From Tubulanus polymorphus (lineage: Eukaryota > Animalia > Nemertea), in contig NC_134029.1 in the NCBI RefSeq assembly GCF_964204645.1, forward strand, positions 13,480,850 to 13,544,849: 64,000 nt of DNA, in the 5' to 3' direction. Of this stretch, positions 17,381-46,242 are shown in pieces. The stretch's first letter is position 1. Every line of letters begins with the position of its first letter. Both the position numbers and the translations under genes were made by a program. The notes beneath the pieces are model-generated. The model ran no database searches and had not been told where the DNA came from. It saw nothing but the letters and a program-made list of their open reading frames with translations.

Positions 17381-17412
17381 AATTTTAACTTTAATAAAAA
17401 ATCTTATATTAA

Positions 17413-18603: not shown

Positions 18604-18630
18604 TTTAAAATATGAATATAATACCCTTTG

Positions 18631-19191: not shown

Positions 19192-19255
19192 TTAGGGGGA
19201 GGTATATAATACATATCTAATACATATCTAATACATAGGTATACAAATATTATTA

Positions 19256-19870
19256 TTATTTTATAAATTTATATTCATATGGAAATTGTAATCTCATAAG
19301 TAATTTGGAACCTTTATTATTCTTTAATTTATTCATATATTCATCATGTAATTCAGGAGGTATAATTTGATTTTCTTCCAATGATTGTTGCATAGATTTT
19401 CTATCTTTGTTGTAGAATAAAACTAGAAATCTTATATTCTCTCTAAAATCTTTCACAATTGAATTATATTTCTGATTTAAAACCCAAGTTGTTATCCCAA
19501 AATGTCTACCAGAGAAAGCTAAATAACATAACTCACTTTCTCTAATTTTAGAATCATTTAAATTTGCGCAATCATCAATAATAAATAATGTATTTGATCC
19601 TTTATAAATATCTAATGCAATTTTTATACAATTATCTAAATTATCTTTCACTGTTTTAGAATTTAATATAATAAACTTTTTATCTTTAAAAACTATATCT
19701 CTATTATACGTTTCATTCATTTCATAAGTTGGGCAGAATAATATTATATTATCAAAATGATTCTTATAAATAGTTTCTAATAAATATAATATGAAGTGTG
19801 TTTTACCACAATTTGTAACTCCAGTAACTAACATATTATGAGGTTCAAATATAAATAAATCTTTATTCAT
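19256..19870 (-). CDS. A32/FtsK-HerA-like DNA packaging ATPase, intact
   Basis: Walker A GVTNCGKT, Walker B IIDD, GRH and NQ motifs. Confidence 0.9.
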   Translation of the reverse strand: MNKDLFIFEPHNMLVTGVTNCGKTHFILYLLETIYKNHFDNIILFCPTYEMNETYNRDIVFKDKKFIILNSKTVKDNLDNCIKIALDIYKGSNTLFIIDDCANLNDSKIRESELCYLAFSGRHFGITTWVLNQKYNSIVKDFRENIRFLVLFYNKDRKSMQQSLEENQIIPPELHDEYMNKLKNNKGSKLLMRLQFPYEYKFIK

Positions 19871-20947
19871 TTATTCTTTTAATTTTACTAGATAAAATCC
19901 ATTCATTAAATTTATCATCATATCCTTTATATTTCACCAAAGAATACTTTTTTCCTTTAAGAGTTTTTGTTTTCAATACCTTTTCTATTTTGTATTCTAT
20001 TTCATCTGGATTTGGTACTAATGATAATTCTTGTTCATAAAAATAACCTAATATTTCTTCATCTTTTAAATCAAACAATTTATAAACAAATGGTTTAGTT
20101 AATATTATCTTTTTAATTTTAAATATTTCTTCTGTAAAATTAGGGGTATAACCTTTATAAAATGTTTTTCGATATTTAGAAATTCTAACATGTTGTCCTA
20201 TTATAAATTTAGGTTCTCCAAATCATGTGTAACAAATGCACCATATAAATTATTCCAAACTATTTCTGAATTTTCTTCTTTTCTAGCTTGTATAGGTTTC
20301 ATATTTATAGAACTATGTTTAGAATTATTATAATCTTTAACTAAATCATCTGATACATTGATATATTTATATGTTTCATTAGCGGTGAAATATTTCCACA
20401 TTCTAGTTTTCAATGTTTTATTAAATCTTTCTATAACAGATGCTTTTTTATCTGAATGTGTTGAAAAATATTCTACATCGTTATCAGTTAATAGTTTTTT
20501 AAAATGTTTGTTATAAAATTCTTTACCTTCATCAAATTGTATTTTATCTGGGATAGCTTCTTTAAATATTAATTTGAAAGAATTTGTAACTTCTATACCA
20601 GTTTTATTTTTAATCGGGATACTCCATGCGTATCTACTGAATATATCTATAACATTTAGTATCCAAAAATATCCTTTGTTATATTCTTCTAAGTTTTTCA
20701 TATCAATTAAATCAGCTTGCCATTGTTGATCGATATATGAAACCATTACTTTTCTTGTTAAATATTTTTTATCCATCTTTTTATGAATTTGATATGTGGG
20801 TTGATTTTGTAACCATGATTTTAATTCACTATATTTTATTTTTTCTTTATCAGATTTAATTTTATCCCATAATTCCGAAACATTTGAATATGAAACTTCA
20901 CTTTCTGGGTTGTAATATAACGCTCTTAAATATTGTTCTTTTTTCAT
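19863..20947 (-). pseudogene. Retroviral-type (rve) integrase with C-terminal chromodomain; 1-nt frameshift near 20221
   Basis: WQADL, IDIFSRYAW, QFDEGKEF, IERFNKTLK; VKYKGYDDKFNEWI chromodomain. Comparison with 51317-52435 shows a lost T. Confidence 0.9.
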
Positions 20948-20953
20948 CTTATC

Positions 20954-21349
20954 TTATTCCATTAATAATAATCTTGGTTTATTTTCAATGACTTTATGAT
21001 TTGACTTATTTTCTGGTATAATAGGTTTATCATCATTGGAATCATATTTATCATCAGATTTGAATTTTGATTTATATATTACACCGGATAATATAATAAC
21101 TGTTACTAATCCAATTGTAATATATAAATAATTATTTCTTCCACTATTAGAAGAATTAGATGGATTATTATTTGAATCAATACTACCGTGTGGGTGCTGT
21201 ACGGCACCATCAGATAATTTCTGTGATTCATTTATATCAGTTAATTTCTTTTTCTTAGCTTTTTTTAATTCTGAAGATCTTTTACCTAATTCTCTTGCCC
21301 ATTTAATTTGTTTCTCTGATCTAGCCTTTTTCTTAACTCCATCACTCAT
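20954..21349 (-). CDS. Small basic Polinton protein with one TM helix
   Basis: Lys-rich N-terminus, LYITIGLVTVIILSGVIY; homolog at 52442-52801. Confidence 0.75.
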   Translation of the reverse strand: MSDGVKKKARSEKQIKWARELGKRSSELKKAKKKKLTDINESQKLSDGAVQHPHGSIDSNNNPSNSSNSGRNNYLYITIGLVTVIILSGVIYKSKFKSDDKYDSNDDKPIIPENKSNHKVIENKPRLLLME

Positions 21350-21947
21350 TTATTTTAGTTAATTTTTGTTCTGATTCATTTTCTGTTTCACTGTTTTGTT
21401 GTAGTACATCTGTTTCGTTCTTACCTGATTTATATTCCATAGGTTTGATGTTCGAAAATGTTATAACTCCAGTAGAAATTAATGTCATAACCGATCCTAA
21501 TTGGAATGAAGCATAACCGACCCATTTTTGTAATTCAGTCATAACTAAGTAGTCATTTTTCAAATCACTATATAATTTATTTTCATCATCAATTGGTATT
21601 AACTGGTTACATAACTTACAATAACATTTGACAATACCATCTGAAATAGAATCATTTATTCTAGCTAATCGAGCTTCTTCATAAATCTTAAAATATTTTA
21701 TTACTTTTTCTTTATTCATATTATCTAATTCTTGAAAAGTTATTGTTTTACCAATAAACTCTTTAGTTTTTCCACTCGCAATCAATAGTTCTAGATGATG
21801 CTTACAATATAAATAGTATTCATAATCAATATTACTATCAATTTTATTATCACATTTAGTTGCCACATTATCATTATCATCTGTTAGACCTAAATCTTCC
21901 AAAGTTTTTTCAACTTTAATATTATTCTTATTCGATTTCTTAGACAT
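21342..21947 (-). CDS. Conserved Polinton hypothetical protein (201 aa)
   Basis: Intact homolog at 52794-53396 and a decayed homolog near 37835-38290. Confidence 0.75.
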   Translation of the reverse strand: MSKKSNKNNIKVEKTLEDLGLTDDNDNVATKCDNKIDSNIDYEYYLYCKHHLELLIASGKTKEFIGKTITFQELDNMNKEKVIKYFKIYEEARLARINDSISDGIVKCYCKLCNQLIPIDDENKLYSDLKNDYLVMTELQKWVGYASFQLGSVMTLISTGVITFSNIKPMEYKSGKNETDVLQQNSETENESEQKLTKINE

Positions 21948-22173
21948 TTATATTAGAGAAATTTAATAAGAATAGTATTATAAGTATTCTTCAAATGATA
22001 CTAGCTAGTTAAAGTTAAAGAATTCTAGTATTAGTTATTGTTTTTTTTAGTATTTTTTATTTGTTATATAAAGTATTCTTTTTTGAAAAGAAAATATTAA
22101 AAATTAAAATAGAAATAATAGATAGTTGAAGGTATGTAATTTTTATTATATTTTATTTAAAATCTATTATTCT

Positions 22174-22839
22174 TTAACCACTCATTAAAGACTCAACGTA
22201 TTGTTCATTATTTGGATTATTATTCCATTGATCAATAAATTTCTTTGCTTTTGTTAACTGTTCTAAATATAACTGTAAATCTAGTTTATTAGATTTGATT
22301 TGATTTTCTTTCTTTTCTAAAGGTCTTAAATTTTTCCAACCCCAAATAAGTTTTTTATTGTATTCATCATTCATGTTAAATTTAGATATTGGTAACACGT
22401 GATCAATATGGTAATGATCCCCATAATTATCTATATTCATTTTATCATCGAATTGAAATATAATCCATGATTTGAGAAATTCATCTGAACAACCCAATAT
22501 ATCAGATAGTGTTTCTGAATGTGTTTCTTTGTTGAATAATTGTGTTAATCTAGACCTTAAGCATTGTTTCAATCTAAAATTAAGATCTGTTTGATATCTT
22601 TCTTTCATATATTTTGTCATATAATAATTATAATGTTCTATATTATCTTCTCGATATTGTTTGGTATATAGTTTAATGCAAGTTTTACAGTAATATTGAA
22701 AACCATCTTTGCTAGTCTTACGCTTACTAAATTCTGTTAATGATTTATCTAATTCACATTTAGAACACTTCTTGTAATATATGTTTATAACGCCAGTGTT
22801 ATTTGTAATATTGATAATTTGTGGTTGTTCTGGTTCCAT
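22174..22839 (-). CDS. HNH endonuclease-like protein with N-terminal Zn ribbon (large-DNA-virus style)
   Basis: CSKC..KSLTEF..KDG..CKTC; HIDHVLP...NLRPL..EN..KSNK. Confidence 0.75.
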   Translation of the reverse strand: MEPEQPQIINITNNTGVINIYYKKCSKCELDKSLTEFSKRKTSKDGFQYYCKTCIKLYTKQYREDNIEHYNYYMTKYMKERYQTDLNFRLKQCLRSRLTQLFNKETHSETLSDILGCSDEFLKSWIIFQFDDKMNIDNYGDHYHIDHVLPISKFNMNDEYNKKLIWGWKNLRPLEKKENQIKSNKLDLQLYLEQLTKAKKFIDQWNNNPNNEQYVESLMSG

Positions 22840-23004
22840 TTATTATACGTATTTTTTTACTAAATTGGTTAATAATTTATAATCCTCTTCCATTTCTTCG
22901 ACCAACGTCATCCTTTTTCATTCCTCGCTGCTTTTGATAAGTTTCAATTCCTTGATATCTAAATAATACCACTGGGCAAAAACGCTCGGGTGAGAGCGAG
23001 TTGG

Positions 23005-23320
23005 CTTCTGCGCATGCGTTAATCCTAATTATATATTCATTCTATAAATTCTGTAAAATAGAAACGACCGACATAAAATATCAAAACGTGTTCGCACTAG
23101 GCAAAACCGCTCTATTAGGAGCGTTTTTGCTTAATGCGCATGCGCTAATTATAATTATATATTCATTCTGTAAATTCTGTAAAATAGAAACAACTGAACA
23201 TAGAAAATTCAAACGCATGCGCACTAGGTAAAACCGCTTTTATAGGATCGTTTTTGATTAATGCGCATGCGCTAATTATAATTATATATTTATTATTGAA
23301 ACGACTGAACATAAAAATTC
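23005..23320. repeat. ~126-bp direct repeats (2.5 copies), each with a GCGCATGCG core
   Basis: Cores at 23010, 23136 and 23263. Confidence 0.8.
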
Positions 23321-23971
23321 ACAAATCAGATTTACACAATACATTATACAAGTTGTTCAGTCATTTCTTCTAATACATCATTTGATTTCTATAAATACAA
23401 TTTATAATTACAAACATTTTTTCAATTGCTGGTAAATATTTAACTACATCAACAAATGTTAAACTTAATCATTGGAGTCTTAATGTTTTTGAAATTATTA
23501 TATTTCTTCTTCGATCTTTTGGTGATTCTATTGGTTCGATATCCATTGCTGTTGATTCCTCAGTCAGAAAGAGTATCTTGAGTTTCTCTATCACTTCTTG
23601 ATGCGTATGACGTTTTATTAATCTAAAAGATATTAGCGGTAACTCTAGCTATCTAAAAGATATACTAAATACACTTAAATATATCTAAAGGTTTCATATT
23701 TAATAGTCTTAATAACTACAACAAACAGTACTTACATTTAGATTTATAATTGTATACTATAAACTCCTAATTTCGTTTCTAAAGATAGAATATCCTGAGC
23801 ACAATATTACAGCGTATGTCCATTTCCGGGGTGATTTCTAGAATGAACACGTCGTTGATTATGCCACGTCATCTAGTTCCGGTTCTAGAATATTCTACAC
23901 GTTTCTGATTATGACGTGTCATAATGTCTCGTCGTTATAGTAACAACTGTAACAGCTGTGAATTTATAGAT

Positions 23972-24244
23972 TTATTCTATAGCTCTGTACATTGAATGTA
24001 TATAGGCTAAAATAGAATCATTTTCTAGTATAAACATCGTATCCTCAACGTATTGTTCATTATTTGGATCAGTGTTCCATAATTCAATAAATTTCTTTCC
24101 TTTTGTTAACTGTTCTGAATATAACTGTAAATATTCTAGTTTCAATTTATTCTCTAAATGTGTTCTAGTTTTATTGTGTCTTGCTTTTTGGGATTTATCT
24201 ATATCGATATTACATGTTGGGCAGTAGTACTTATTTGCTTCCAT
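23972..24244 (-). CDS. Small C2H2 zinc-finger protein sharing a C-terminal module with the HNH protein
   Basis: YCPTC..HNKTRTH; LQLYSEQLTKGKKFIELWNTDPNNEQYVE. Confidence 0.6.
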   Translation of the reverse strand: MEANKYYCPTCNIDIDKSQKARHNKTRTHLENKLKLEYLQLYSEQLTKGKKFIELWNTDPNNEQYVEDTMFILENDSILAYIHSMYRAIE

Positions 24245-24310
24245 TTTAATACTATATTTTTTATTAAAATTGATTTTAGAAGTTCAATGATTTAAATGTT
24301 ATTCATATAT

Positions 24311-24470
24311 ATGAATATTTTAAGAGTAATAGGGATAATAGGCTTTCAAGCTAAAGGTTGAACGGGCGGGTGAGTAAAAATGAAAAACATAAAAATAATT
24401 ACAATTTCTACTTGAATTAGGAGTGAAACTCATAAAAATGAAAAATAAATTCGAGCGTGTGAGAATATTT
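24311..24470 (+). repeat. Interspersed repeat end; inverted homolog at 47375-47476
   Basis: atgaatattttaagagtaatagggataatagg...aaaggttgaa...gtgagtaaaaa...ataaattcgagc is shared by both copies. Confidence 0.65.
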
Positions 24471-25463
24471 GAGGACTTATGAACTAAAAATTAGTTAAAT
24501 TTTTGATACATTTTGAGAAAGTCACAAAACATTTGATACTGCGTTAGAGTTCTGTATACAAAGCATACGGGGTTTAACAGTACCTTTGACCCTGTCACGT
24601 ATCACAGCAAATCTTAAACAGATGTGGCTATTTTGAACAGGAAATTACTGTGCCATCTCAAAATGGTCAATTTTTCGCTAGTTGACTTTTAGAATTTTAA
24701 TTGAAAGGTAGAGACTATTTCGGCGTCATTTATTTGTCATTTGTGATTACATCCAGCAGTCAAATGATTTCATTTCAATCGCTGCCTCAACTTACAATCG
24801 TCACGATTTTTTGTATATTTTTCTGTCATATCTGAAACTCGGGTCCCCAGGGCGAGTCACTATTAAAGCCATGAGACTACATCGAAGTACCGATCATCAT
24901 GACGTAAGCCGAAAGCCGTTACCGCTCTCCGCAAAATACATTCGTTACCGTAATCCAACTGAATTTTTATAGAATATATGTAATGAAATTTATCAATGAA
25001 TCGGTCAAATGAAACATTTTCTTTAGAATATGTAAAATGTGCGAGGATTCAGCGTAAATTCAAATCAGCGAAATTAATATAATAATCAACGATTCAGTGA
25101 TTCAGCGAAGTTCGGAACACCCCCAAAACGAAGCACATCTGACTCCAATTCTATATAAATTGTCATCCGATTCTAGAAACGTTTTCGTATCGCAATCATG
25201 GCAATTGCGCAATATAAGTATAAGGCTCGCACTTAAACTTCTTTTAAACCCATAATTTGGAATGCGTACGATGTACATTCCTAACTGTTCAAGTCATTCC
25301 TCAATGATAGGAGACGTTTGACTGAAACACTTTTGGATTCCTCGTCAGTCAAAACTACAAATCAACCGACTGATATCGGACCAGCAATAACTTCAAAAAC
25401 TGATCAAGTTAACTGACTGATCTTAATCTTGGATTAGTGAATACTGCAAATATAATGCAGTAA

Positions 25464-25687
25464 ACCGACCTAGGTTACAATATTGTAGCCTCGGTCAGTG
25501 TATGCAGATAAATCCGCGCAAGTCAACCGACCTAGGTTACAATATTGTAGCCTCGGTCAGTGTATGCAGATAAATCCGCGCAAGTCAACCGACCTAGGTT
25601 ACAATATTGTAGCCTCGGTCGGTGTATGCAGATAAATCCGCGCAAGTCAACCGACCTAGGTTACAATATTGTAGCCTCGGTCAGTGT
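25464..25687. repeat. 62-bp tandem repeat, 3.6 copies, with an internal palindrome
   Basis: Units start at 25464, 25526, 25588 and 25650; gacctaggttacaat/attgtagcctcggtc. Confidence 0.9.
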
Positions 25688-25984
25688 TCCACTGATGAAT
25701 CATACATTTGCCTCAACCTAGTCTGCCAGGTTACTTATTGTTTTGTCTTTATCCTGACCCAATCATAACCGTATTTCTTTTTTCAGCTTTACAACTGATT
25801 CCACGAATTTAATAATTCCATTTTCGAATAATAATGTGTTTCTTGCTAAATTAGAATTATATGCTGCTTCATTATCGTTACTAAACTCGTTTCAGGTTGT
25901 TGTTCATCGGTTAAACTGGGTTCATCAAAAGTACCCATTTAATAATCTTCTCCACCATCTACTTCCATTTATATAATACAAAAA

Positions 25985-27057
25985 TTAAAATTTTAAATAT
26001 AATATTCCTCGTGTTACAATTCCTATACAAGTTATAGCTGATTTAGTATTTTCATGTGATTTATTATCACTATTACTTTTAATTATTTAATGTTGAATAT
26101 TATTAGTTTTTATATCTTCCGATGTATTGTAATCTTTGATTTTAGAATCATTATTTTATTTAATATTCTTAGTTTTAGTTTCAGTTGAGTGTCTATTCTT
26201 TTTTAATTTTTTCACCTTCCATTAGTTTTGAAGCAGTGACAATTAGTTTATTTATATCATTTTATCCAAACTTTTTATTTATTGCTGCAGTTTTAATTAG
26301 GTTATTATAACCAATTATATTTCCCATTTTTAATATTAAATCATCAGATATAATTAATAAATTAGGACCTATACAGTAATTTAATCTTACATGAGATTTA
26401 TCTAAATAATTTTGATATCTTACTATATTGTCTGGGATCGATCTATTTTATCATTATGAATAGAACTTTGAAATAATAATTTGAATGGTTTTTGTGTATC
26501 AAATGGTGTATTCAAATTTCCAATTATTGGGAATCTTGTTTCAATTTGTGATCCTAATATACAAATCAAATATATTCTTATAGATTGATTTATTCTCTGT
26601 ATACCTGATTTTGTAAATCCTTCACTTTTTTTTAAAATAAAATAAATCCAACCATTATTGTTTTCTTGTTTTGAAATTATCATGAAATTTCGGTAATTTA
26701 TTGAAATTTAATATTCTTAAATCCATGTTTTCCATTTTGCCGTAACCTAATTTATTATTATAGATATTGTTATTATTAGATTATATTATTGGTTCTGCCA
26801 ATACATCATATTCGATTTTAATAACCATTGTTTTTCTTCATTCAATTTTTTAAAATAGATTAAGTATACATGAAATATATTTTCCATCTTTACATTAAAA
26901 TTATAAGTTTCAGTAACATAAATATCTGAATTAATTAATGAATTTAAAACTTCATTTTTGTATGTAATATATAATATTAAAATCTATTGCTGGAATATTA
27001 TATTTAATTGATTTATTATATTGAAAAGCTTTTTTATATTGAAAAACTATCTACCAT
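25985..27057 (-). pseudogene. Conserved Polinton hypothetical gene with C-terminal TM (decayed)
   Basis: GW..FIL..SEGFTKSGIQRINQSIRIYLICILGSQIETR..FDTQK; copies at 42740-43905 and 54570-55632. Confidence 0.7.
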
Positions 27058-27073
27058 TTATATAATAAAAAAA

Positions 27074-27505
27074 TTAATAATTTATTAATTCTTTTAATAA
27101 TTTATCTTGTTCTTCAATTGTTATATTACCATTTAAACTAATAATATAATCGAGTGTATTGTTCAATTTATTAATTTCTTTTATATTAGATTTTATTTTT
27201 TCTTGATTACTTTTTATATTTAATTTTGAACTTATTCCGGTTAAAACACTTGAACTTAAACCTAAAACGCCAATTGATATAGCTAAAGGTGTTAATGGAC
27301 TGAATATTGCTAAAAATGTTATCACCGAACTAAATGTAACTGAACCACTAATAATAAAATAATACATAATTTTACTTGTTAAAAATGTTTTCTTTTTAAT
27401 TTTTAATTTTTCGAATTCTTATATTTGTTTTTCTAAATAAATTTTTAATTTTGTTTTATTCAAATATTGAGGAATAACATCAACACCATCAATGTTATCT
27501 TCCAT
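27074..27505 (-). pseudogene. Small two-TM Polinton protein
   Basis: Hydrophobic hairpin ITFLAIFSPLTPLAISIGVLGL; copies at 43923-44347 and 55649-56079. Confidence 0.65.
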
Positions 27506-27511
27506 TTATAT

Positions 27512-27965
27512 TATGAAAAAATTACTAATTAGTAAATTTGTATGCTATAAATATAACAATAACTGTCCCACCTAAAATCCATATTATTTCATATTTCTTC
27601 TGTTCATTACTTGGGGTATAATAATCCGATATTGTAGGTTTATATAGATGTATTTCTTTTCTTTATTTGTTACTGCGTTATATAAACTCATTGCATCACC
27701 GACTGATTTAAAATCTCGATGTAAAATATTTTGATTATATAATTCATAATATAATATTTTCATAATTAATATAATCCATACAATTTTGTCTCTTTTCTCT
27801 ATATTCTTCAGCTGCTTTATTATATTTTTCTAACGCTAAGTTATGTCTTTTTTGTTCTGATAATGAGCCATTTTTATCAATATCCTTAAATAAATATCCA
27901 CCACAAGTAAATGCTAAAGCGTTAACAATTGCCGATCCTATAATAGTTATAATTGCAGATGCCAT
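27512..27965 (-). pseudogene. Polinton protein with N-terminal hydrophobic/amphipathic helix, coiled coil and C-terminal TM (frameshifted)
   Basis: MASAIITIIGSAIVNALAF..EQKRHNLALEKY; copies at 44353-44780 and 56086-56539. Confidence 0.7.
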
Positions 27966-29234
27966 TTATATAACAAAAAAATTAAACTTCAATAGGAGGA
28001 ATATATTTTTGTTTTTCTCAATAATCAATTGTTAAATTAGATAAAGTAACTGCTAATGTTAATTTTGAAATATCATTGATATCAAATCTATCAACATTGA
28101 TATTATTATTATTATTATTATTATTATCCACTTCTGAAAAAACCTACGGTATTATTAGCGAAAAAAATTGAGACCCACTAGTTTTTAAATACTCGTAAAT
28201 ACATTGTGGGTACTTTTTTTCTATCATATCTTGGCAATTGTTGTTCATTAAGTCTGGTTGATTCTAAAAAAGTTGACCCATTTAGTTTAACATTTCGTTT
28301 AAAAGTTGTTAGTAGTCAAATCTAACAGAAGATGATTTTTATGTGACGAAACTCAGTGGAAAATATGTTAGAATAATGATCAGCAGGAACCCTTATAATA
28401 ATAATCAGCAGGAATACAATAGGGTTTCTGCGAAGGCAGCAGAAACCCTAATAAAAGACATAAATTTTTCAGATGGAACGTATAGTTTCTTATTTTTGTT
28501 CAAGGGGCTGGAGATTATTAAGTCTCTTATTGGTTCGGTAGGCCTAATCTATAAGCGTGATTGTGAACCGTTTTGGAGGATAATTAGGGTTTTCTAATTC
28601 TTCACAGAAATTGAGATTCGCGTGATTATTATTATTTTTTCCCCTTTTCCACTCAGTTTTTGTTAAAAGTGCAAAGGCTTCCTTACCTTACCGCTGTTGC
28701 CGATACAATCACTGTCGAGCCGTAAACATCGAAAATTTGGCCTCGTTCAATTAGTAGCCATGTTGTGTTTTCTTCCGACATTTCTCTCTTCTTTTTGTGG
28801 AAGAGATATCGAATTATTCCCTCTCTTCTCCACAATCAATTTCTAAATAAACGCCCCAACCCCGGCAAGTAAGTTCAAACTGTGCTGTGCGGAGGCAATC
28901 TAACAAAACTCGACCCCTGTGGACTCTTTCTAATATTCTATTGTAATTTTAATCATTTTGCTAAGGTTTTTTGAAAGAATAATCGAATTCTCTGAAATTT
29001 CGATGCGTGACTCCCTGTTCCCTTAGGGGGAGTTAGATTTGACCACCCAGTTCGTTGTGTCGGGACTCTAACCGCCTCAGTGCGGTGTATGAATCGGTGA
29101 AGCATTTTACTAGTACCCCACACTGTGGTGTATTGATGATCATATAATTATACTATATTCTTTTCAACCATTATTTATTACACAAAAAAGATTACCTCGA
29201 ACCCCACAAAAATAATTTTAATAACATTTTTCCA

Positions 29235-29850
29235 TTGGACGAGAAGATACAATGTGAAATTTGTGGTGAATACACAGAAAACGTAATATGGCTCGACATA
29301 TGAAAAAACATGATGAAAATTATAAACCCCCTAAAATAAAACTGTCCAAATTGTAATAAAACATTCTCTAGAAATTATTTTAAAAAACATTCAGAGAAAT
29401 GTAAAATTAAAGACTTAATAATTAATGTTGGTAGTAACGAAAGTAATAATAATTCTGTTGAAGTTGAACCTATTTGGAAAAGACCTTTTTTATTTTATGA
29501 CAAGAATAATGTAAAGAATAATTTATGTGAGCATTGTCGAATAAGATTTTGTCCTGAAAATACAGAAGATTGGGAGAATCATCAATTTAATGAAGAACAT
29601 TTAAATAAAATTTCTAATCATTTGAAACAGAATTCAATGAAAGAAAAATTAATATATTAGAAAAAATAAAATATGAGAAAACGTTACCAGATAATTAAAA
29701 AAAACACTTGAAAAGTTAGAAAAATATTATAATGAATTAGTAAGAAAAACATATTATTGTAAATATTGTACACTGATTATTACAACAAGTAATTCAAATC
29801 TACATAATAAAACAATAAAACATAAAGAAAACGTAAGTAAATACTAAGGA
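29235..29850 (+). pseudogene. Multi-zinc-finger Polinton gene (decayed)
   Basis: Homolog of ORF 46243-46692 (CEIC..H, CPNC, CEHC); start ATG>TTG and frameshifts. Confidence 0.65.
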
Positions 29851-29854
29851 CTTA

Positions 29855-30484
29855 ATGAACAACTATTGCCAAGATATGATAGAAAAAAAGTACCCACAAT
29901 GTATTTACGAGTATTTAAAACAAGAAGATTCTATGATATTTTGTAATGAATGTGGATGGCAAAGAAATTTATGGGGTGATGAAAGCACTAGAGATTTTCT
30001 TATAGAAAAATTAAAATATCTAGATGAAACAATTAAAATATTTTCTATAAAAGATCATACACCAGAATATATGCGATGGCTTGAAAAAATGAAAATGATA
30101 GAAAATAAGAATGGTGAAATAACTAAGATAGGTATAATAAAAACAATTATTCCATCAACATTTAACACAAAACAAAAGAAAATGTATTTATATTTATTAT
30201 TTAACGATCATTACAAAAAACCTAAATTAACAAAAGAAGATATGAAAAATATAAAAGAAACATTCATAAAAATATTAAAATATTGTGCGGATAATAAAAT
30301 AACAGATTCAATTAATTATGAATTCTTTTTAAATAAGATTGTAAATTTTTTAAGCATCGATATTAAAATTCCATTTGATGAAATAACAAATAAAAAGAAA
30401 CGAAAAGAGCGAGATGAAATGTGGAATAATATTGGATTTTATTTAAATGAGAAAAATGAAATGGAAGAACATATAGAAACCTAA
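29855..30484 (+). CDS. Poxvirus/NCLDV late transcription factor VLTF3-like protein
   Basis: N-terminal FCNECG and C-terminal INYEFFLNKIVNFL..KKRKERDEMWNNI; partial copy at 46895-47290. Confidence 0.6.
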   Translation: MNNYCQDMIEKKYPQCIYEYLKQEDSMIFCNECGWQRNLWGDESTRDFLIEKLKYLDETIKIFSIKDHTPEYMRWLEKMKMIENKNGEITKIGIIKTIIPSTFNTKQKKMYLYLLFNDHYKKPKLTKEDMKNIKETFIKILKYCADNKITDSINYEFFLNKIVNFLSIDIKIPFDEITNKKKRKERDEMWNNIGFYLNEKNEMEEHIET

Positions 30485-30567
30485 GAACCTAAAGAAATTA
30501 TAGAAAAACAATTAGATGAAAATAGAGAAGCCAATAGTGATTTTGAGTATAATGATATTGATACATT

Positions 30568-31022
30568 TTAATAACCATAAGGTAATGTTTTTATTCCATC
30601 ATCCAGAATATACCTTTTATCGTCGAATGGATTTGAGCTAGTTTGTTTAACTTCATTAATGTACATCTCGTGATCTTCTGATCTTTAACAATTAATTTTA
30701 TGTTTCATTACTATTGAGTTATATAAACACTTTATATAATCTTGAAATTCTATATGTTTATCAACCACATGCTTTGTTATTCCTTTTAACGTTTTAGCTT
30801 CATGATCTTTTGTTCTATAACTATACATTTTACTTCTTATCCCAACAAATTCAATCATTTCATCACCCCCTAATTCATCTTTAAACTTTCCAGGAATTTT
30901 TTATTATCATCGCTAAATAATTCATGATCTTTTGGATAATTGCTAAAGTCAAAATGATGTTTTAATGTTTTTAAGTCTTTTGTTATGTTATTTGTCTTGA
31001 TTTTTAGTATGTAAGCATCCAT
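30568..31022 (-). pseudogene. Protein-primed family B DNA polymerase, C-terminal extein
   Basis: (T>M)DAYILKIKT, FDFSNYP, PGKFKDELGG, EFVGIRSKMYSY, LKGI, FDDKRYILDDGIKTLPYGY*. One frameshift and one stop. Confidence 0.9.
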
Positions 31023-31990
31023 ATTTAAGCAAATTAAAGGAAATCCACAATTAAATGTACCATCTTCAGTAGTTAAATCGTAAACATCATCTGTTGGGTT
31101 ATATATTTCAAATGAATCTCTAACTTCCTCAGTTAATTCTTTTTCAACATGCCTTAATTTAAATATATTCGGTTTAGATTTAATTAATCCAATATTCATA
31201 TTTAAACCTAATGAATTACATAATAGATACAATCCTGATATAGCAACTTTAACTTTTTGAGCAAATGAAATAGTTTTTGTTTTTGTATATTCTTTTAAAC
31301 CATCTGCTGCGTAGAATCCAATGAAGAACCATTTTCTTAAATTATATTTTGCATTTAATACATAATCTGGGACTACCTTTTCTTTTGTTGAAGTATTACT
31401 ATTGAACTATTGCGTGAATATAGAATTCATCATTATATTTAATTGCTAAATCTTTAGGATTATTTACATATATTCTATAAACTACTGATGATTTCATAAT
31501 ATCTATGATTTTAAAAACTTTGTGCGAATAAACTTCTTCACAGTATTCTTGATTTCTTTCTAATAATTTCAAATCTTGACTACATAAATACCTACAATAT
31601 TTTGTACAATTAACATATTTATAAACACCTGCTGAACCATCTCCCATAAAAAATCCTTTGACAAAATTTTCTTTGTCTTCTAATGTTTCTGGTTCTATGT
31701 TATAGTATTATGAATCATTTCATCAAATGACATATGATTCATTCTTGGAAAAAATCTTTCATCTCCAATTTTTATATTAGTTGGTTTTATTTCATCACCA
31801 TTTCGTCTGTTTAAACTATAATCTTCAGTAACATCTACAAACCCTAGTTTAGTTCTAACTCTATAGATTTTCTTATAAATGATATAATATTCTTTAATTT
31901 TTTCCATCCATTTCTTGTCCAAACATCCATTAATCCATTTATTTGTATTAATTCTTTTTCACCATACGAAATATAAAGTCCATCTTGTTT
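31023..31990 (-). mobile_element. LAGLIDADG-endonuclease intein remnant in the pPolB catalytic motif (N-terminus lost)
   Basis: VWTRNGW, KKIYRVRTKLGFVDVTEDYSL (block B), FVKGFFMGDG (C), KVVPDYVLN (D), FFIGFYAADG (E), GLYLLCNSLG (H), VYDLTTEDGTF (F) and terminal Asn at 31025-31023. Confidence 0.85.
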
Positions 31991-33829
31991 AGCGAATCAC
32001 ATCAGATGCGTTGTTTTTCGCTGGCAGGTTCGCTCTATCAATACTAAACATCCGATTCACCAGATATTGGCTATAGTGGCATCCTGTCCAGTCAGGAAAT
32101 CTTAGACCGGAGTAATACAGCAATATGGTCTGCGGCAGGGTTTGTTTTGGTGTGAGCTTCGGCAGGAGGCGATTAAACCCCTGCAAGCGAGCATGCTTTA
32201 AGTTAGGGAACAGTGCTCAAGTTAGCGAAGAAATGTAACAATGACAGCATAATTTGGCTATCGTATTTGAATCTACGTGTATTTTGATAGTCTAATATGA
32301 GTGAGAACAGAATTCCGGGTGGGGTAGGCGTTCAAAAGCAGTTAAGGCGGTGTTGGGAATCGACAGACTCAGAATGGCATCTCCATGAAATAACCAATCC
32401 GAACTAATAGCGTTAACTATGCAGGAGGGAAGAAGACCAATGAGTGACAAGTTGGTCCAGCGAGTCACGAAGTGGAAACTTTATTTCAAATCAATGAACT
32501 TGACGTCCAATAACTATCATAAAAACAAAATCACGAAGGGCACCATAACTTACTATCACTGCTGCTGCTGCAATCAGTCTTTATCGGTGCAGTGGGTAGG
32601 TTTTTTTCCACTGACTTTAGGCCTGTTAATATAGGCGACGACAAGGTGACACGTCGCTGACATTTTCTGACGCTAATTAGTAAGACCGCAAATGCGGAAC
32701 ATAAGCGGAACATCAATGGCCTAATGGACCGGACCAATTCAATTCAATATAAAAATGCGTACAATAAATAGATAAAACCTCTTGAATATTTGTAATATTT
32801 ATATCTGCGAACAAAACAACGAACTGAAGCTATTGAAATGCATGTATCCAGTGCTTTTCACAGTCGCATGCGTGCGTACGTACCATTCTTAATAACTGGC
32901 ATTCCGTATTTAGTCCGAATACGTTTTTTCGTGAATCAATTGCTAGTCCAGATACGTTTTTTTCTCGGTTGTGCGGGAATGCCGATTGCCGATCGCCTAT
33001 CGTGGAGTGTAGCCTGACAGTAAGCAATTTTAAGTTTAAAATACAGTACAGTTTACATACAGTACAGATGTACAGTTTACATACATAGAATCCGAGTGCA
33101 GAGTGGAAACGTAATATTTCTATCAGAATTCCACATTCCGTTTAGTAGCTGTTAGTTGACGAATCCGAGAGAAGATGAATTATATGTGATGAATAAAGTG
33201 GAAAATATGTAAATAATGATAATAATCAACAGAATCACAAGAGGGTTTTCGACGAAAGTCAGAAAACCCTAAAAATGTATTTTCTCAAATTATGAATGGA
33301 AACGCATACCTATCTTTGTCATGAAGTTTTTGGCAGAATTTCAGAGAATCCGTGCACCAATTAGTCAAAATACGTAGCCTATCGTGTACATTTTATTCTT
33401 TTGAATGAATATATAGATATGAATAGACAATGTATGAAATAATTATGAGTTTTCCTAATTTGAATATAGTTATGAGTTATTCTTATCATATTAAGAATGA
33501 ATTTGATGCATTGCAGTTATTTATGGTCTTCGATTCCTACTCATGGACCCCAAAAAGAGAGGAAATCATAAATGAATTATAGTAAGACAACATTGTGTAA
33601 AAAAGGTATACAAATGAACCAGAGATGCGGGCCTTTCCTTCATGACGCAGCAGAAGAAGAATGATTCAGTATTCAAAGTTTTACAGAATGATTTACATTG
33701 TAACGATCTAACAAGTTTTAAAATAGTTAAGAGGTACAGGCTATGTGGCGATAATCTTCATTTTCTGTTAATATATCCTTACATGAAAAGACAAGCCCAT
33801 TTTAGCTGCACCAAAGATCACACTACATG

Positions 33830-34823: not shown

Positions 34824-36228
34824 AACAAGGCAATTCGTACTACGTATCTATGTCCCCCGCGATAGCCACTAGGGAATGAATGACCCCTGAAGTCACTGAT
34901 CTTTGGAATAGAAAAATGATGAGTGTATCCAGGGATAACCATACTATGAAATATCATTTTCCTGTTATGAATGGTTATTTAAGAATGAGTTTACACGGTT
35001 TTAGGCAAAAGACGTCTACCAACCTTGACCTTTGACCCTAGAACTCCAAAATCACTAATGCACATCCTCTCCCCAGGGGTAATCATACTATGAAATAGCA
35101 TTGTTCTGTTATCAATGGTTTTTCTTGAATCGTGTTTACAAGGTTTCATATGAATGATATCTAGTGACCTTGCCCTTTTTCCCCAAAATCAATTGGGCAC
35201 ATCCTCTCCCTAGGGGTAATCATGCGATGTAACATCATTATATTGCTATCAACAGTTCTTTCTGAATCACATTCACGACACAGGGTTTCACATCAATGAC
35301 CTGAAGTGACCTTGACCTTTGATCCTTGGAGCCCAGAATCAATAGGGCACATCCTCTCCATAAGGTAATCATAATACGTAATATCATGGTCCTGCTATCA
35401 ACGGTTCTTCTTGAATGACGTTCACAAGGTTTCACATGAATGACTTGTAGTGACCCTGACCTTTGGTCCTTGGACCCCAAAATCAATAGTGCACAGCATC
35501 TCACTAGGGGTAATGATACTACGTAATATCATGGTCCTGCTATCGACGGTTCTTCTTGAATCACGTTCACAAGGTTTTACATGAATGACCTGTAGTGACC
35601 TTGACCTTTGATCCTTGGACCCCAGAATCAATAGGGCACATCCTTTCCCTAGGGGTAATCATACTACGTAATATCATGGTCCTGCTATCAACGGTTCTTC
35701 TTGAATGACGTTCACAAGGTTTCACATAAATGACCTGTAGTGACCTTGACCTTTGATCCTTGGACCCCAAAATCAATAGGGCACATCCTCTCCCTAGGGG
35801 TAATCATACTACGTAATAACATCGTCCTGCTATAGACGGTTCTTCTTGAATCACGTTCACAAGGTTTTACATGAATGACCTGTAGTGACCTTGACCTTTG
35901 GTCCTTGGACCCCAAAATCAATAGGGCACATCCTCTCCCTAGGGGTAATCATACTACGTAATATCATGGTCCTGCTAACAACGGTTCTTCTTGAATGACG
36001 TTCACAAGGTTTTACATGAATGACCAATAGTGACGTTGACCTTTGGTCCTTGGACCCCAAAATCAATAGGGCTCATCCTCTCCCTAGGGGTAATTATACT
36101 GTGTTATATCATAGTCCTGCAATCTACGGTTCTTCTTGAATCGCGTTCACAAGCTCATGCGGACGGACGGCCAGACCGGTGGATACCAAGTCCCCAGCTC
36201 GCGGCCTACGTCGCGCGGGGGACAATAA
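34824..36228. mobile_element. Helentron-associated non-autonomous element (HINE/DINE-like) with an internal 145-bp satellite
   Basis: Subterminal IR tgtcccccgcg (34851) / cgcgggggaca (36214), about 8 units of 145 bp with tgaccttgacctttg, a ggacggacgg microsatellite and a 3' hairpin. Confidence 0.75.
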
Positions 36229-36613: not shown

Positions 36614-38308
36614 AGACGGTCATCATGATTTAGAAATTGTTGACTTAATAAAAAAACAAAAATAAATTAAACTAGAAAATTAATTTTAATAAATTAATTG
36701 ACGCCTGCGAAAAAAATGTAGAATTTCTGGGATAAGCTAATGTAAAATTGCAAATTTGAAATCGAAGTTTTAAGAAATTTGGGGAGTTATGAGTTTTGGC
36801 GATTGGGTAGATGATACAGGTCTTCGACTGGTCTAATCAAAAAAAAAAAATTGTCAACTTGTGGCCGACTTCGATTCACTTTTGCCGCAAAGCTGGCTTG
36901 CAACTTCATTGCAACTTCATGCTTGAAGAAAGAGCTCTTCTGAGGTCTGCTTCATCATGACTTCGAGCGTATCGTGTAGCCAGCCGGCCCGGTCCACGGG
37001 GCCCGGTTTGGTTGTCACTCGATATCCTAGTCTTGAGTCTGGGTCGAAGTAGACATTGTCATTTGAATTACTTATTCATGTTAATCTGTATGAATTACCC
37101 ATGTGTCTTGTATTTCCTTATTCTAAAATGTGTAACTTTATTGAATTTGGGAATTTTATCCCGGAATTCCATTGTATTAAGGATCAATAAAGAATCGAAT
37201 TGAAGTCACCTAATACACATGCCATCAGTGGATGTGGAGCCGTATATGACAGCTATGCTATAATAAATTGCTAATCTCATGAAACCTGCATACCCCTAAT
37301 ATCGAAAATATTTTCTAAAACATTTGAATATTGAAATTATATGTTTACACGTATCTATATTGACCGCTTGTAGCCGCCGATGAAATTCACGCCGGCCCAA
37401 CATAGATCGTAGATAGCTTCGTCATTCCACCAGCATCCCCATGTAAGGGTCTGACTTTTATATCAGACTTCCAAATCGTGTATACATCCGCCATTTAACC
37501 GAATAATCCGATTTACTTATCATTTCTATATATGCCTGCCGCTTCTGATATAATCATACATCCTTTACTATAACAATACGTCTTCTCATGATATGCTATG
37601 CAATATAACATTTTGACGTTCAAATAGAGGTCATTATATAATCACAGGAAGCCATTCTACGTCGTTGTCAATAATATTTTGCCAAAATAGCTTGTATGTG
37701 TACACATATACTTGTGACGTTTTGCACATCGATTTACGGTTGTCGTTTGAAAAATGACGCTGAATGGTTAAAATTGTTTAGGTTTCATAATGGTAACGTT
37801 TTATAAGGCGTCAAAAAAATAAATTAATGAAATGATAAATATCCAATCCATTTATTTAATTCAGTCATAACTAAATAATCATTTTTTAAATCGGAATATA
37901 ATCTATTTTCATCTTCAATTGGTAGCATATAATTACATAATTTACTATAACCATTTATAATACATTTTCTGATATCGCATCATTAATTCTAGCTATTCTC
38001 GCAGTTTCATAAATCTTAAATAATTTCGTCTGATTTCATTGTATCTAATTCATTATAAGTTAAATTTTTACTAATGAAACTTTTACATTTTCCGGATGCT
38101 ATTATTATTTCTAAGTGATGTTTGCAATAAAGATAATATTCATAATTATTATTTGTAGTAATATCATTTAAAGCACCAATATTATCTGGTGTTAATTTTG
38201 TTTCTGTTAATTTTGTTTCTGTTATAGCTAAATCATCCAAAGTTTTTTCGATTGGAACATCACTATTTTTAGATTTCATTTTCTTTTCACCTCCAATTTT
38301 TATAAAAA

Positions 38309-39210
38309 AACAAGAGCCCCAAGGGGCACTATGGCCAGCCTGTCAGATTTTCATAAAATGGCAACTGATGATGCATTCTGTGGGTAAAATTTGCCAAAAT
38401 ACACTCCCAGCTCAGAGTCAATATCTAATAATTTACACCATACAATCGTAGAATACAAAAGTAGCACAGACAGCGACTGGATCTGGCAGGAAAAAATACC
38501 TCAGATAAATCTTTTCCCTTGGTCTTATTGATTTTAATGCGGAATAAAATTGAATATTCAATAAAACAAAATTGAATTGGATTTGATGTTTTTATTTCTT
38601 TAATAAAGTAAAATTGAATTGGATTTGATATTTTTGTGCAGAATAAAATTTGATTTTAAATTTGAATTTGAATTTGAATTTGTAGTTTGAGCACTTGGCT
38701 AATTTGCATATCAAGGTCATCTATCCGATTTGAGAAAAAGCAATTTTTCCCGGACTTTGTACAATGGTCAATGATATTTTCTGTAGTGCTAATAAAGATA
38801 TTCCTCCCAAAAACCAAATTATCTAAAAGCTTTCACAGAAATCGATCTTGAAATACAATTTTAGATCTTAAGATAAAACCCGGAAGTAAAACGGTAGACG
38901 ATACCGCGGGTTCACGTGAACACCTGCTGATTTCTAAGCCAATCATAGAGGAGTCTTTGCTTTCTGATTGGCTTTTCAAAACCAATATTTTTGCGATCAG
39001 ATATTCGCGAAAAAGCCCATATAAATTTTAACGAGGCCCTCTTTCAAAATTCAGCTACGTAGAGTTTGGAAAATTGATAATGCTTTAATGAATGATCTGT
39101 ATGAATATATGCCCAGTTGCACATTCAAAGAGCCTTTGCTCTGGAAACCATGTCATTTAAATTCGCTCTATTTGTATAGTAATAGGCTCAGCCTACGGCT
39201 GGCCTAAAAA
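38309..39210. mobile_element. Helentron-associated non-autonomous element inserted in Polinton C
   Basis: Starts aacaagagccccaaggggc..tggccagcc and ends with hairpin aggctcagcctacggctggcctaaaaa; sits in an A-run. Confidence 0.6.
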
Positions 39211-39329
39211 TTACTTGTGTTGTTGCAACTAGAATTCAACTAGAATTTAACTTAAAATAAACGAGATTAACAAGCTAGTTGAAATTAAATAAATTCATAT
39301 TTAACTGGGAGTTGTAATCGAAATAGTAA

Positions 39330-39887
39330 TTTTGATCTTTTATTATTTTTCAATTTATCCATATATTCAATATCTAAATCATGTGAAATAATATCATTTT
39401 CCTCAAGCGCATTTTTCATTGATTTCCTATCTTTATTGTAGAATAATACTAAAAATCTAATGTTTTCTCTAAAATCTTTAACAATTGAATTGTATTTTTG
39501 ATTTAAAACCCACGTTGTTATCCCAAAATGTCTACCAGAAAAAGCTAAATAACATAATTCACTTTCTCTAACTTTTGAATCATGTAAATTAGCACAATCA
39601 TGTATAATGAATAATGTTTTTGTTCCTTTATAAATATCAATTGCTATTTTTATACAATTATCTAAATTTTCTTTAACTGTTTTAGGATCTAATACAATAA
39701 ATTTATAATATTTCTATCATAAGTTTGATTAAATTCATACGTTGGGCAGAATAATACTATATTATCAAAATAGTTTTTATAAACAGTTTCTAATAAATTG
39801 AATATTTAATAAGTTTTTCCACAATTTGTTACACCAGAAATTAACATATTATGAGGTTCAAATATCAATAATTACTTATTTATTCAT
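39330..39887 (-). pseudogene. Packaging ATPase, decayed copy
   Basis: Nucleotide homology to 19256-19870 with multiple indels. Confidence 0.8.
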
Positions 39888-40024
39888 ATATATTTAATTT
39901 TACTTGATAATATCCATTGGCGCGATATATATTTTGCAAAAGAATAAGCAACCGAACTCTCAGGGTTATAATATAAATATCTTAAATATTGTTCTTTAGT
40001 ATTATGAGTTTTTTTATCCCCCAT
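39884..40024 (-). pseudogene. Integrase remnant: N-terminus fused to the chromodomain tail
   Basis: MGDKKTHNTKEQYLRYLYYNPESSVAYS...QWILSSKIKYI*. Confidence 0.7.
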
Positions 40025-40054
40025 TTATATAACTTTAATTTTAACTTTATTTTC

Positions 40055-41302
40055 CTAATATTGAATACTATCTAATTGAGAATTTATAATATTTAATTGC
40101 GCGTCAGATAAAACATAAATATGCATTTTATGATTTAAACCTCCTTTTTTCTTTTTCAAGAATAATTGCATTCCATCTTTTGTATTTTGAAATTTTTTTC
40201 TCCCAGAACCATGTAATGAGTTATCTTCACTTGTTCTAAAATCTAACCATAATGCATATTTATTGCCGATATAATAATCAATTTGATTAATATTACAATC
40301 TTCAGATGATTTTTCATTTATAAAATGTTTTTTTAATATCTACCCATTGATTTATCATTCTCATTCCCTGACAAAAAATTGTATTTGCTATACCTTCAAT
40401 TGTTATTTATATTTTTGATATTTCAGGATTATAATAATTATCTACTTTTAGTGCACCATTAGAATATGTTGCAATGGTAAAAAATATTAATATACCTTTA
40501 ATAGATCTTCTTGGGAAGTTAATATTCTCATTAATTATTTCATCATTTGCATTAATAGTTACAGTTTTAATTTTATCAATATAATCATATAATAATGAAA
40601 ATCCTTGATTACATTGAGTTTGAATTGTGTTAGCAATATTTTCATCAGTTACTGTGTCATATTCTAAACATTTATTTGATTATTTATATATAACCCATAT
40701 CTTTAACAACGCTAGATAATACAATTTCATTAACAGGAGCAAATGTTACTTCGAATATAGTATTTTCTTGAATTGCATATTTATATAAAGGTGCATTATT
40801 ATTTATCAATTCAAAGTCTAATGGAATTAAATATTTGCATCCATAAACCTTTTTTATTAAATTATCTACGTCATTAGTTACTACTGCATTATGCGCTTCA
40901 GATCTTAATTTATTTTGGTTTTCTGATTGGATGCCTTGAAATATCATATTTCTATTATCTTTTGTTAACCATAAATCTTTATAATGCGTAAATAAATTAT
41001 AATCATCTAATGAAAAAACTGATTCTGGTCCAATCTTTATAATTATTTTTTAATTAAATATCTTCCAACATTATCTACATTATCTCGACATAATTATTAT
41101 TATTACCAGTTACTTTTATATCAGCTGATAAATAAATACTATTTGGAACATAAAAAGTATTTTGTGTAAATTGAGGAATTCTAACATATAAAGTTTCATC
41201 AGGATTTATATTAGATGGATTATGAGTATGCTGGGATCTTTCTGCTTTAATTGCATTAGATATTCAAGAATTCTTAGAATGATTTATATAACTCCCACTC
41301 AT
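40055..41302 (-). pseudogene. Major capsid protein, decayed copy
   Basis: Full-length homology to 16133-17380 with several indels. Confidence 0.85.
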
Positions 41303-41349
41303 TTATTTAAAAAAACAATTACTTGTTTATTTTTCATCATATTCACTTA

Positions 41350-42720
41350 TTCAAAAATAACAACTGTAATTAAAAATAAAATAATATGTTCAGCAGCAAA
41401 ACTAATGTGATTTCCAGCAGACTTTAAAACAAATTTAACAATTAACGCAATAATTCCAGGTTAAGCTGCAGCAGATTTTTTAGATAGTTCCCATAAATAT
41501 TTTACTAATTTTTTCAAACCATCTTTAACTTTATCTTGTATAGAATTATTATCATTTGGTGGTTTAGGACTTGGTGTAGATTTTAAAGAATTCGATATTG
41601 CTAAACCTATTGTTGTAAAAACCATAGTTACAGCTGTTAGAATTGAAAGAATTGTTATACCTTCTAGTTTAAATAATAATTCTATTCTTTCTTGCAATGA
41701 TATTTCAGAATCTGGTTTTATCAACGAATTTTTAAAAATAACTTTTAATCTATTAATATTATTAGCATATTTTTTCATTAATTCATTTTTTTTCTTTTTC
41801 CTGTACTTCTAAATTATTTTTTACATTATCAATTTCTTTTTCTAAATATGCATTTCTTTTTTTAAATTCATTTTCTTCAATATTTTTATTATTTCTATCT
41901 AACTTTAATTGTTCTAATTCTTCATTTGCTTTAGATAATTTATCTTCTAAAGATTTAATTTTTGATTTCTTATCATTCTATCGTATGCAATTTTATCAGA
42001 TGGAAGTTTTACACCTTTAATATATCTAATTTCTTCATCAGAAAATATATTTAAATCTTCTATTCTTGATCTTTTGCATCAAGTAACCCATTTTGTAAAA
42101 GTTTTTTTTCAGTTTGAACTTCGGTTGATTAAAGTTTACTAGTTTTGGAAGTTATATTCTGTTCAGAAGTTGTTTCTGTTTCTGAATTACTATTGATTAT
42201 CTTTTTAAATTCATCATTTCTTCGATTAAATTCTCTTTTATTTAGAATTACCTCTTGTTCTGTAATATAAGTTATAACATCATAATTGATTTTATTAATT
42301 CTAGGTAATTCTATTTTAGGATTTGTTATTATTTTATCATAACTTTTATTAGAAGATAACTTAAAATAATAGTCATCTTTCAAATGCCAATAAAAATCTC
42401 CATTTGGTTCTTTCAAATCTTTTACTAGATAATTCATACCTTTATCAGTTATATTGAGCCCAGAATTTTTTAATATTGGTTTAAACTTTTCAATTAATTC
42501 TTCATATTCTAATTCTTTTTTATTAAATCTGGATTTTCATTTTCAATATCCAATCTTGAACCTGCTTTACTACCATATTCATTAGTATCAGGTCTTGCTG
42601 AATTAGAATTATATGCTGTTTCATTATCGTTACTAAAACTTGTTTCACTAAATTTGGGTTGTGGTTCATCGGTTATTCGAGATTCATCGAAAGTACCCAT
42701 ATCATAATCTTCTACACCTT
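41350..42720 (-). pseudogene. Large coiled-coil/membrane protein gene upstream of MCP (decayed)
   Basis: ORF pieces 42509-42766, 42129-42437 and 41461-41778; C-terminus homologous to 15660-16108. Confidence 0.65.
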
Positions 42721-45378: not shown

Positions 45379-45380
45379 TT

Positions 45381-45409
<29 letters not shown>

Positions 45410-45411
<2 letters not shown>

Positions 45412-46176: not shown

Positions 46177-46242
46177 ATTTCTAACGCAAAAAATTACTTC
46201 GAACCACTAAAAATTAATTTCTATAAAATTTTCCCTAAATAA

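Follow-up and report, generated by a model that had tools for sequence, protein, structure and literature searches.

A 64-kb stretch of DNA (the window, here always at its full length) raises the question of how an intein with a homing endonuclease came to lie in the polymerase of a Polinton. On the minus strand, positions 31987-31023 of the window encode a decayed LAGLIDADG intein, and directly after it comes the C-terminal portion of a protein-primed PolB (pPolB) of a Polinton. From comparison of sequences we consider it quite probable that this is a dead, 5'-truncated intein at the YxD/TDS motif of the polymerase (the stroke marks the junction), and that it belongs to a family which is predicted to splice and likely homes among Polintons after a likely single, old entry from giant viruses. 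A preliminary description of the locus had read it as a one-off crossing that was then fossilised; instead, we found a family of inteins that is spread over several lineages of pPolB and is represented by both filled and empty alleles.

The remnant (31987-31023) consists of four frame pieces (31987-31883, 31874-31707, 31704-31402 and 31400-31023). It holds splicing block B (VDVTEDYSL, 31812-31838), in which the catalytic His is absent, and the first and second LAGLIDADG motifs, blocks C and E (FVKGFFMGDG, 31636-31665, and FFIGFYAADG, 31299-31328), each with its acidic residue retained. Splicing blocks F and G follow (31023-31085), with the block-F Asp, the terminal Asn (31025-31023) and, at the end, a GFPLI-type motif that is common to one group of giant-virus inteins. 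The C-extein (30568-31022, minus strand) is the pPolB tail from the catalytic motif to the stop codon at 30570-30568. One open frame spans the intein/extein junction, and the first C-extein codon (+1, 31022-31020) encodes Met, i.e. no nucleophile. Frame breaks lie near 31880, 31705, 31401 and 30897, with an internal stop near 30686. Neither block A (about the first 29 columns of the profile described below) nor an N-extein was detected anywhere in the 64-kb window by tblastn or profile search. Because of this truncation, the frame lesions and the loss of both the block-B His and the +1 nucleophile, the window copy is a dead member of the intein family, predicted to be unable to splice or to encode a polymerase, in keeping with the preliminary description.

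The best database relative was P0001, a protein of 1,693 aa that matches the window at 53-65% identity overall. A tblastn search with P0001 tiled the positions 31987-31883 (56%), 31874-31707 (65%) and 31704-31369 (53%), all in register, and then 31400-30897 (62% over 168 aa, crossing the intein/extein junction), with the tail matched to 30571. A hidden Markov model (HMM) of the intein gave 156, 109, 82 and 22 bits on the window pieces, covering columns 30-348 of 354, against a best score of 2.8 bits over 20 shuffles of 30000-33000. As this HMM was built from seven intact relatives that had themselves been found with the window, it is not independent evidence. Independent evidence for the identity of the intein came from Pfam and a fold search, both run on intact relatives. 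The intact precursors matched DNA_pol_B_2 (E 5e-17 in P0001), Intein_splicing and LAGLIDADG_3, and intein_Nterm scored over its cut-off for P0037. The structural model of the P0001 intein (predicted local distance difference test, pLDDT, 77.7; predicted template modelling score, pTM, 0.82) matched the endonuclease-bearing inteins 7QSU, 7QST, 7QSS, 2CW7 and 1DQ3 (E 2e-15 to 1e-10), as well as PI-SceI (1VDE, E 2e-9), and has a modelled Hint fold with an inserted LAGLIDADG domain. The Hint and LAGLIDADG assignments made earlier stand on the intact relatives. Taken alone, the window fragments reached only sub-threshold Pfam scores for Hom_end (E 0.009) and LAGLIDADG_3 (E 0.016), and Hint was not matched.

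The family was sampled by three word-indexed searches, from each of which the best 9-120 matches were taken. A search with the window open reading frame (ORF) gave nine longer proteins among 874 candidates, seven with intein or LAGLIDADG domains and two without. A search with the P0001 intein gave 3,085 matches, the best 120 of which comprised five pPolBs (P0001, P0006, P0037, P0050 and P0051), 114 RNA-primed PolBs and one topoisomerase II. In all five pPolBs the insert lies between xxD and TDS (xxD/S...N/TDS), confirming the insertion site first proposed for the window copy, and the residues before the junction vary (YMD, YLD, ASD, SSD). Twelve complete pPolB inteins, several near-copies among them, were available. 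Each carried Ser1, the block-B His that the window copy has lost, both acidic LAGLIDADG motifs, the block-F Asp, the terminal Asn and Thr+1, and in these intact relatives an N-extein is joined through the Ser1 of block A. The penultimate residue was His in 10 of the 12, Ser in one and Lys in one.

A further pPolB intein, split over two frames, was found on the metagenome contig L081, and several intein-bearing pPolBs hold an Endonuclease VII domain elsewhere in the same protein. No intein match was found at 22 pPolB loci among viral contigs, and neither the window intein ORF nor the capsid ORF described below had relatives among the viral contigs searched. Sequence searches of the PDB yielded nothing informative. 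Leads from the ESM Atlas (<0.9) were Endonuclease-VII pPolB clusters of eukaryotes; among the matches listed none joins a pPolB to an intein. P0050, P0051 and their kin have ASD, SSD, GFD or FGD before TDS, the usual Tyr being absent, and occur as filled and empty alleles. P0043 is a type II topoisomerase with an intein of the same family at DQD/TDG. An 1,854-aa pPolB (L184:4439-10003) is extended at its C terminus, with a PriCT_2-like domain (E 9e-4, under the cut-off) at the very end, and is possibly a pPolB-primase fusion.

With these features, an intact insert of 337-354 aa would be translated within the polymerase. Class-1 excision would proceed by an acyl shift at Ser1, aided by the block-B His, then attack by Thr+1 and cyclisation of the terminal Asn, and would restore the motif required for replication. 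The two-motif endonuclease is predicted to cleave other Polinton copies whose site is still empty; mending of the break on the filled template would then carry over the intein and some of its flanks. Empty targets should be at hand, since a single nucleus houses Polintons in many copies and their particles may infect together, and such co-infection may be the route of transfer.

Both filled and intact empty alleles, which the preliminary description had suggested looking for, were found among other pPolBs. The YFD/TDS site is empty in P0008, P0027, P0170 and P0171, and an intein was present in none of 120 nearby pPolBs scanned (P0008, P0009, P0027 and P0170-P0286, a set without P0001). P0182 carries the UniRef label Sulfurimonas and is a close relative of Polinton polymerases, probably by contamination. 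We built an extein tree of 38 rows, in which 105 further proteins were thinned to 17 and from which P0006 was left out as unalignable, along with P0009, P0179, P0182, P0270 and three near-copies. The C-extein of the window grouped with Endonuclease-VII-type pPolBs. Its nearest kin were empty polymerases (80% identity to P0027 over 148 columns), in a clade of five with a Shimodaira-Hasegawa-like approximate likelihood ratio (SH-aLRT) of 100. The seven filled rows of the 38 require six changes on this tree, all forced by well-supported branches, which is no fewer than with shuffled labels (206/500 as low).

The cluster of P0037 (136 members, of which 40 were read and 15 listed) allowed filled and empty alleles to be compared at close range. 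Seven of the 15 listed were filled, six were empty and two did not cover the site, and their exteins were 94-99% identical. At up to 10 residues from the site, filled and empty alleles differed at 40.8% of positions (343/840), empty alleles differed from each other at 17.3%, and filled alleles did not differ at all (0/420). Far upstream the corresponding values were 1.5%, 2.4% and 0.6%. Among 900 covered positions there were nine fixed filled/empty differences, all between -7 and +44. This pattern fits co-conversion of the flanks with the intein, escape mutations in the empty alleles, or both. Flank divergence and patchy distribution are indirect signs that would be consistent with homing.

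Much of this could also arise if an ancestral pPolB had been entered once and the intein had since been inherited vertically, with many losses by precise conversion and little present-day homing. The monophyly of the pPolB inteins would be expected from such a history, as would the position of the window near P0001 in both trees, the matching intein and extein groupings of L081, P0037 and P0003-P0011, and the similar identities between P0001 and P0037 (47% for the intein, 44% for the N-extein). It is harder to reconcile with P0006, whose intein is 46% identical to that of P0001 (E 2e-99) in a polymerase that barely aligns with others (best E 0.004 for the P0001 and P0006 exteins); similar inteins in such polymerases would be hard to explain otherwise than by transfer between pPolB groups. 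Nuclease motifs that are intact in 12/12, and filled-allele flanks that are uniform and sharply unlike those of near-identical empty alleles, speak against it too, and with no intein in the 120 nearby pPolBs many losses would be needed. We therefore regard this vertical history as unlikely and prefer a family that homes among Polintons.

The origin of that family was addressed with intein trees. From 266 same-site inteins of polymerases other than pPolBs, thinned to 50, a hand-thinned subset of 37 rows was used for careful trees, rooted on three inteins of other sites. The pPolB inteins formed one clade (100/100) under both LG+G4 and the C20 mixture, in which the window intein grouped with P0001 (98/96) and then with P0006 (96/93). 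Under the mixture model this clade sat within RNA-primed PolB intein groups of 19 rows (98/97) and 22 rows (97/92), and two inteins from archaeal metagenome-assembled genomes (MAGs) fell outside both. Those GVMAG-labelled members of the groups that were found in a published taxonomy table (PMC8575486) are Imitervirales. Most other rows are unnamed and were taken as giant-virus type by domain content and tree position. The shared C-terminal motif occurred in 13 viral contigs, 12 of them labelled GVMAG, and seven of these 12 were found in the table, as marine Imitervirales (IM_01, IM_07 or IM_08). Quick trees placed the giant-virus clade with the GFPLI motif as direct sister, a relation that the careful trees did not retain.

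Every maximum likelihood (ML) tree favoured the direction from giant virus to Polinton, and the giant-virus PolB inteins at the same site, at 30-42% identity to the P0001 intein, proved to be the closest relatives outside Polintons, as had been supposed. A giant-virus donor for the pPolB inteins thus appears probable, and for the sampled set the entry into pPolBs was likely old and single. The nearest relative of the window intein is another pPolB intein, at 61% identity compared with 30-42% between the P0001 intein and RNA-primed PolB inteins, so the immediate donor to the window copy was most likely another Polinton and not a giant virus directly. In GTDB only five relatives were found, all in MAGs; two look archaeal and three group with or resemble viral sequences. 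Same-site inteins of the family also lie in polymerases of archaeal MAGs (L160, L161 and L164, one of them labelled Promethearchaeota), where they form their own clade. PolB inteins like those of giant viruses were found in contigs of bacterial MAGs (L162, L163 and L165), which are probably misbinned viral contigs.

Genomic reads of organism A (1,934 Mb, about 12% of run X5) were searched for further copies, and 7,045 of them matched the window at >=80%. Reads cover the intein at a depth of 124-240 and the C-extein at 283-639; at the intein's depth a single-copy locus would need a genome of about 10 Mb, from which we infer that the intein is multicopy in organism A. The reads cover the junction region of the window, and 158 of them follow the C-extein to 31014 and then depart, as empty alleles would. 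Most reads do not have the lesions of the window copy: an indel relative to the window was present at the break near 31883 in 135/159 reads and at the break near 31401 in 77/154, and the codon at the block-B His position differed from the window in 236/240 reads of other copies. At the C-extein break 72/451 reads differed, where more distant copies map as well. The wholeness of any single copy cannot be read from these data.

Several results weigh against the reading of a homing family that came from giant viruses. An approximately unbiased (AU) test did not reject a position of the pPolB inteins outside all other same-site inteins (p = 0.097). The nesting expected by the preliminary description (intein among giant-virus-type PolB inteins, extein with pPolBs) was recovered in the trees, and the direction of the crossing is favoured without being secured. 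A position of P0006 outside the other pPolB inteins was likewise not rejected (p = 0.37), and the exact giant-virus sister group, supported at 95 in one quick tree, was lost in the careful trees. Only in P0037 kin did the insertion site rank in the top 1% of windows by variability. There the six core residues varied 8.5 times as much as the background; the values were 0.93, 0.81 and 0.58 for three further groups that bear inteins and 0 in the kin of the window (four proteins), with 0.15 in a group of 57 proteins in which no intein was seen. Target-site escape as a general rule was accordingly rejected, the excess of site variation holding for P0037 kin only. Within the clade of L081, P0037 and P0003-P0011 the tree of inteins matches that of exteins, so part of the pattern is accounted for by inheritance and repeated loss. 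Only 66 of the 7,045 organism A reads were >=99% like the window, so the copies there are taken as relatives of the window copy, and organism A may not be the same species. Finally, the intact precursors are putative Polinton genes. A bolder picture, in which a splicing and homing lineage from marine Imitervirales was taken up once, lives in animal Polintons, jumps between deeply diverged polymerase groups and drives empty alleles to evade cutting by changes near the catalytic motif and even inside it (TDS to TDA or CDS), and so acts as a natural gene drive among copies of an endogenous virus in the animal germline, is possible and is offered tentatively.

Transfer in the other direction, from a Polinton-type or unsampled virus into one group of Imitervirales, would agree with the AU result, and the long stem to the pPolB clade and the sampling of best-scoring matches only would leave room for it. 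RNA-primed PolBs, however, hold a far wider diversity of same-site inteins (114 of the best 120 matches), archaeal MAGs have them too, and three nested, well-supported nodes enclose the pPolB clade; we think this route very unlikely and retain a giant-virus donor.

The intact inserts might instead not splice, or be Hint domains of the Hedgehog or bacterial intein-like (BIL) type, with the filled polymerases as inactive passengers replicated in trans. Splicing is predicted from sequence, P0001 and P0006 have another residue in place of the penultimate His, and Intein_splicing scores under the Pfam cut-off for most family members. Against this, all other class-1 residues are retained, the penultimate His is missing in many giant-virus members of the family too, and the filled genes are full open frames that are 98-99% identical across copies, in which an insert that stayed in would break up the catalytic motif. 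A Hedgehog/BIL Hint domain was ruled out by the insertion in the catalytic motif, the empty alleles and the two LAGLIDADG motifs. Non-splicing inserts are in our judgement highly improbable, and a family predicted to splice is the better account. That a fragment of a giant-virus intein was joined to the tail of a Polinton polymerase by chance or as an assembly chimera, as the decayed and rearranged locus and its 5' end cut by an unrelated repeat might suggest, can be set aside, because five independent full-length precursors share the junction seen in the window at 31022/31023, the open frame across it aligns to P0001 on both sides, and reads over the region show many related intein copies.

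Among known systems the closest is the pol-c intein of Mimivirus, described at YGD/TDS with 351 aa (Ogata et al., 2005, PMC549080). The pol-c inteins of Mimivirus and of other PolBs of nucleocytoplasmic large DNA viruses (NCLDVs) share the site, a similar length, the Ser1/Asn/Thr+1 class-1 chemistry and two LAGLIDADG motifs, and in those features that sequence and modelled fold can address the pPolB insert agrees with them and is predicted to splice. The nearest relatives outside Polintons are unnamed members of NCLDV type, the named Mimivirus intein being compared by its description. The pPolB inteins differ in their host, which is a protein-primed PolB without significant similarity to those polymerases, in an integrating element and a probable animal nucleus, and in a site that accepts YMD, YLD, ASD or SSD before the junction. 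HNH and VSR nuclease insertions are known in Polinton pPolBs (Jeong et al., 2023, PMC10748475), and the nearest statement found in the literature, which cites work on these domains, suggests that nuclease insertions in pPolBs derive from intein invasions (Krupovic et al., 2024, PMC11161782). Those are likewise nuclease domains inside Polinton polymerases, reported without a splicing domain (the words intein, Hint and LAGLIDADG have no occurrence in the main text of PMC10748475), whereas the present insert has Hint blocks and splits the catalytic motif, and empty alleles of it exist. The nuclear inteins of fungi (VMA1/PI-SceI, Prp8) show the same Hint and LAGLIDADG bifunctionality in eukaryotic nuclear DNA; the carrier here is a multicopy endogenous virus-like element. 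Nuclear inteins are described as mostly fungal, plastid inteins as algal and viral inteins as of NCLDVs (Green et al., 2018, PMC5784728), with no mention of Polintons, Mavericks or animals in the survey passages of that paper, and reviews give archaea, bacteria, unicellular eukaryotes, fungi, plastids and large DNA viruses as the full range of inteins (PMC7765530, PMC5784728). Searches of open-access full text found no description of a Hint-domain intein in Polintons, Repbase, InBase, closed papers and most supplements lying outside that search.

The novelty lies in the host: protein-primed Polinton polymerases, probably in an animal nucleus, of which both filled and empty alleles exist together. 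A splicing and homing intein in these polymerases would extend the range of this selfish class to animal nuclear DNA and to protein-primed polymerases. It also marks gene flow between Polintons and giant viruses, in support of the view that Polintons, as infecting viruses, encounter both giant viruses and one another. With its near-identical filled and empty alleles, the family opens homing, co-conversion and target-site escape to direct test, and it is a source of new inteins and predicted LAGLIDADG nucleases.

At the truncation point of the window copy (31988-32010) an unrelated multicopy repeat, starting at about 32000, replaces block A and the N-extein. There 243 reads enter the window at 32001 from other sequence, with depth climbing from about 77 to about 354, and three contigs of other copies depart from the window at 31992 and continue in sequence unlike it. 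Tail to tail with the polymerase lies a Polinton ORF of 215 aa (29837-30484, plus strand), and the same order of ORF and polymerase was seen in another copy (X1 record 2, spanning 30203-30523 and 30568-30833). Polinton hallmarks are an rve integrase, an A32-type ATPase and a capsid gene together with a pPolB. Besides the protein-primed PolB, the window holds a retroviral-type integrase (20201-20953, minus strand; rve, E 4.7e-9), an A32-type packaging ATPase (19256-19870, minus strand; Pox_A32, E 3.9e-12) and a putative major capsid protein (16133-17380, plus strand; Capsid_N, E 0.013, below the cut-off), further copies of which lie near 40021-41720 and 47958-49699. The capsid ORF had no PDB sequence match, and its single-sequence model (pLDDT 32) was too poor for a fold search. 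This gene set, with its probable capsid gene, and the AT-rich DNA are those of Polintons/Mavericks of adintovirus type. At least three decayed, partly inverted copies of one AT-rich Polinton family occupy 15554-30484, 37828-45743 and 46146-57410; their shared blocks are 82-98% identical, and polymerase sequence is left in only one. In this decayed cluster neither a protease gene nor terminal inverted repeats were identified, and no clean element ends or target-site duplication could be assigned, the 25 longest of 35 inverted repeats being mostly inverted copies of the element.

A decayed retroelement at about 57600-62780 (plus strand) has aspartyl protease, H2C2, rve and DUF5641 domains, and from their order we take it to be probably a BEL/Pao-type long terminal repeat (LTR) element. 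The BEL/Pao group is described as metazoan (PMC3118150, PMC8742986). Given this element and the range of its group, the carrier likely lies in an animal nuclear genome. At 2227-11802 (plus strand) the window also holds an 811-aa hAT-like transposase ORF (weak Dimer_Tnp_hAT), a 687-aa ORF with a PHD finger at its end and a 458-aa ORF without a Pfam match, which by eye presumably resembles an Ulp1-type protease. In non-Polinton DNA upstream of the intein, a 145-bp tandem repeat is present in 7.8 copies (35022-36153).
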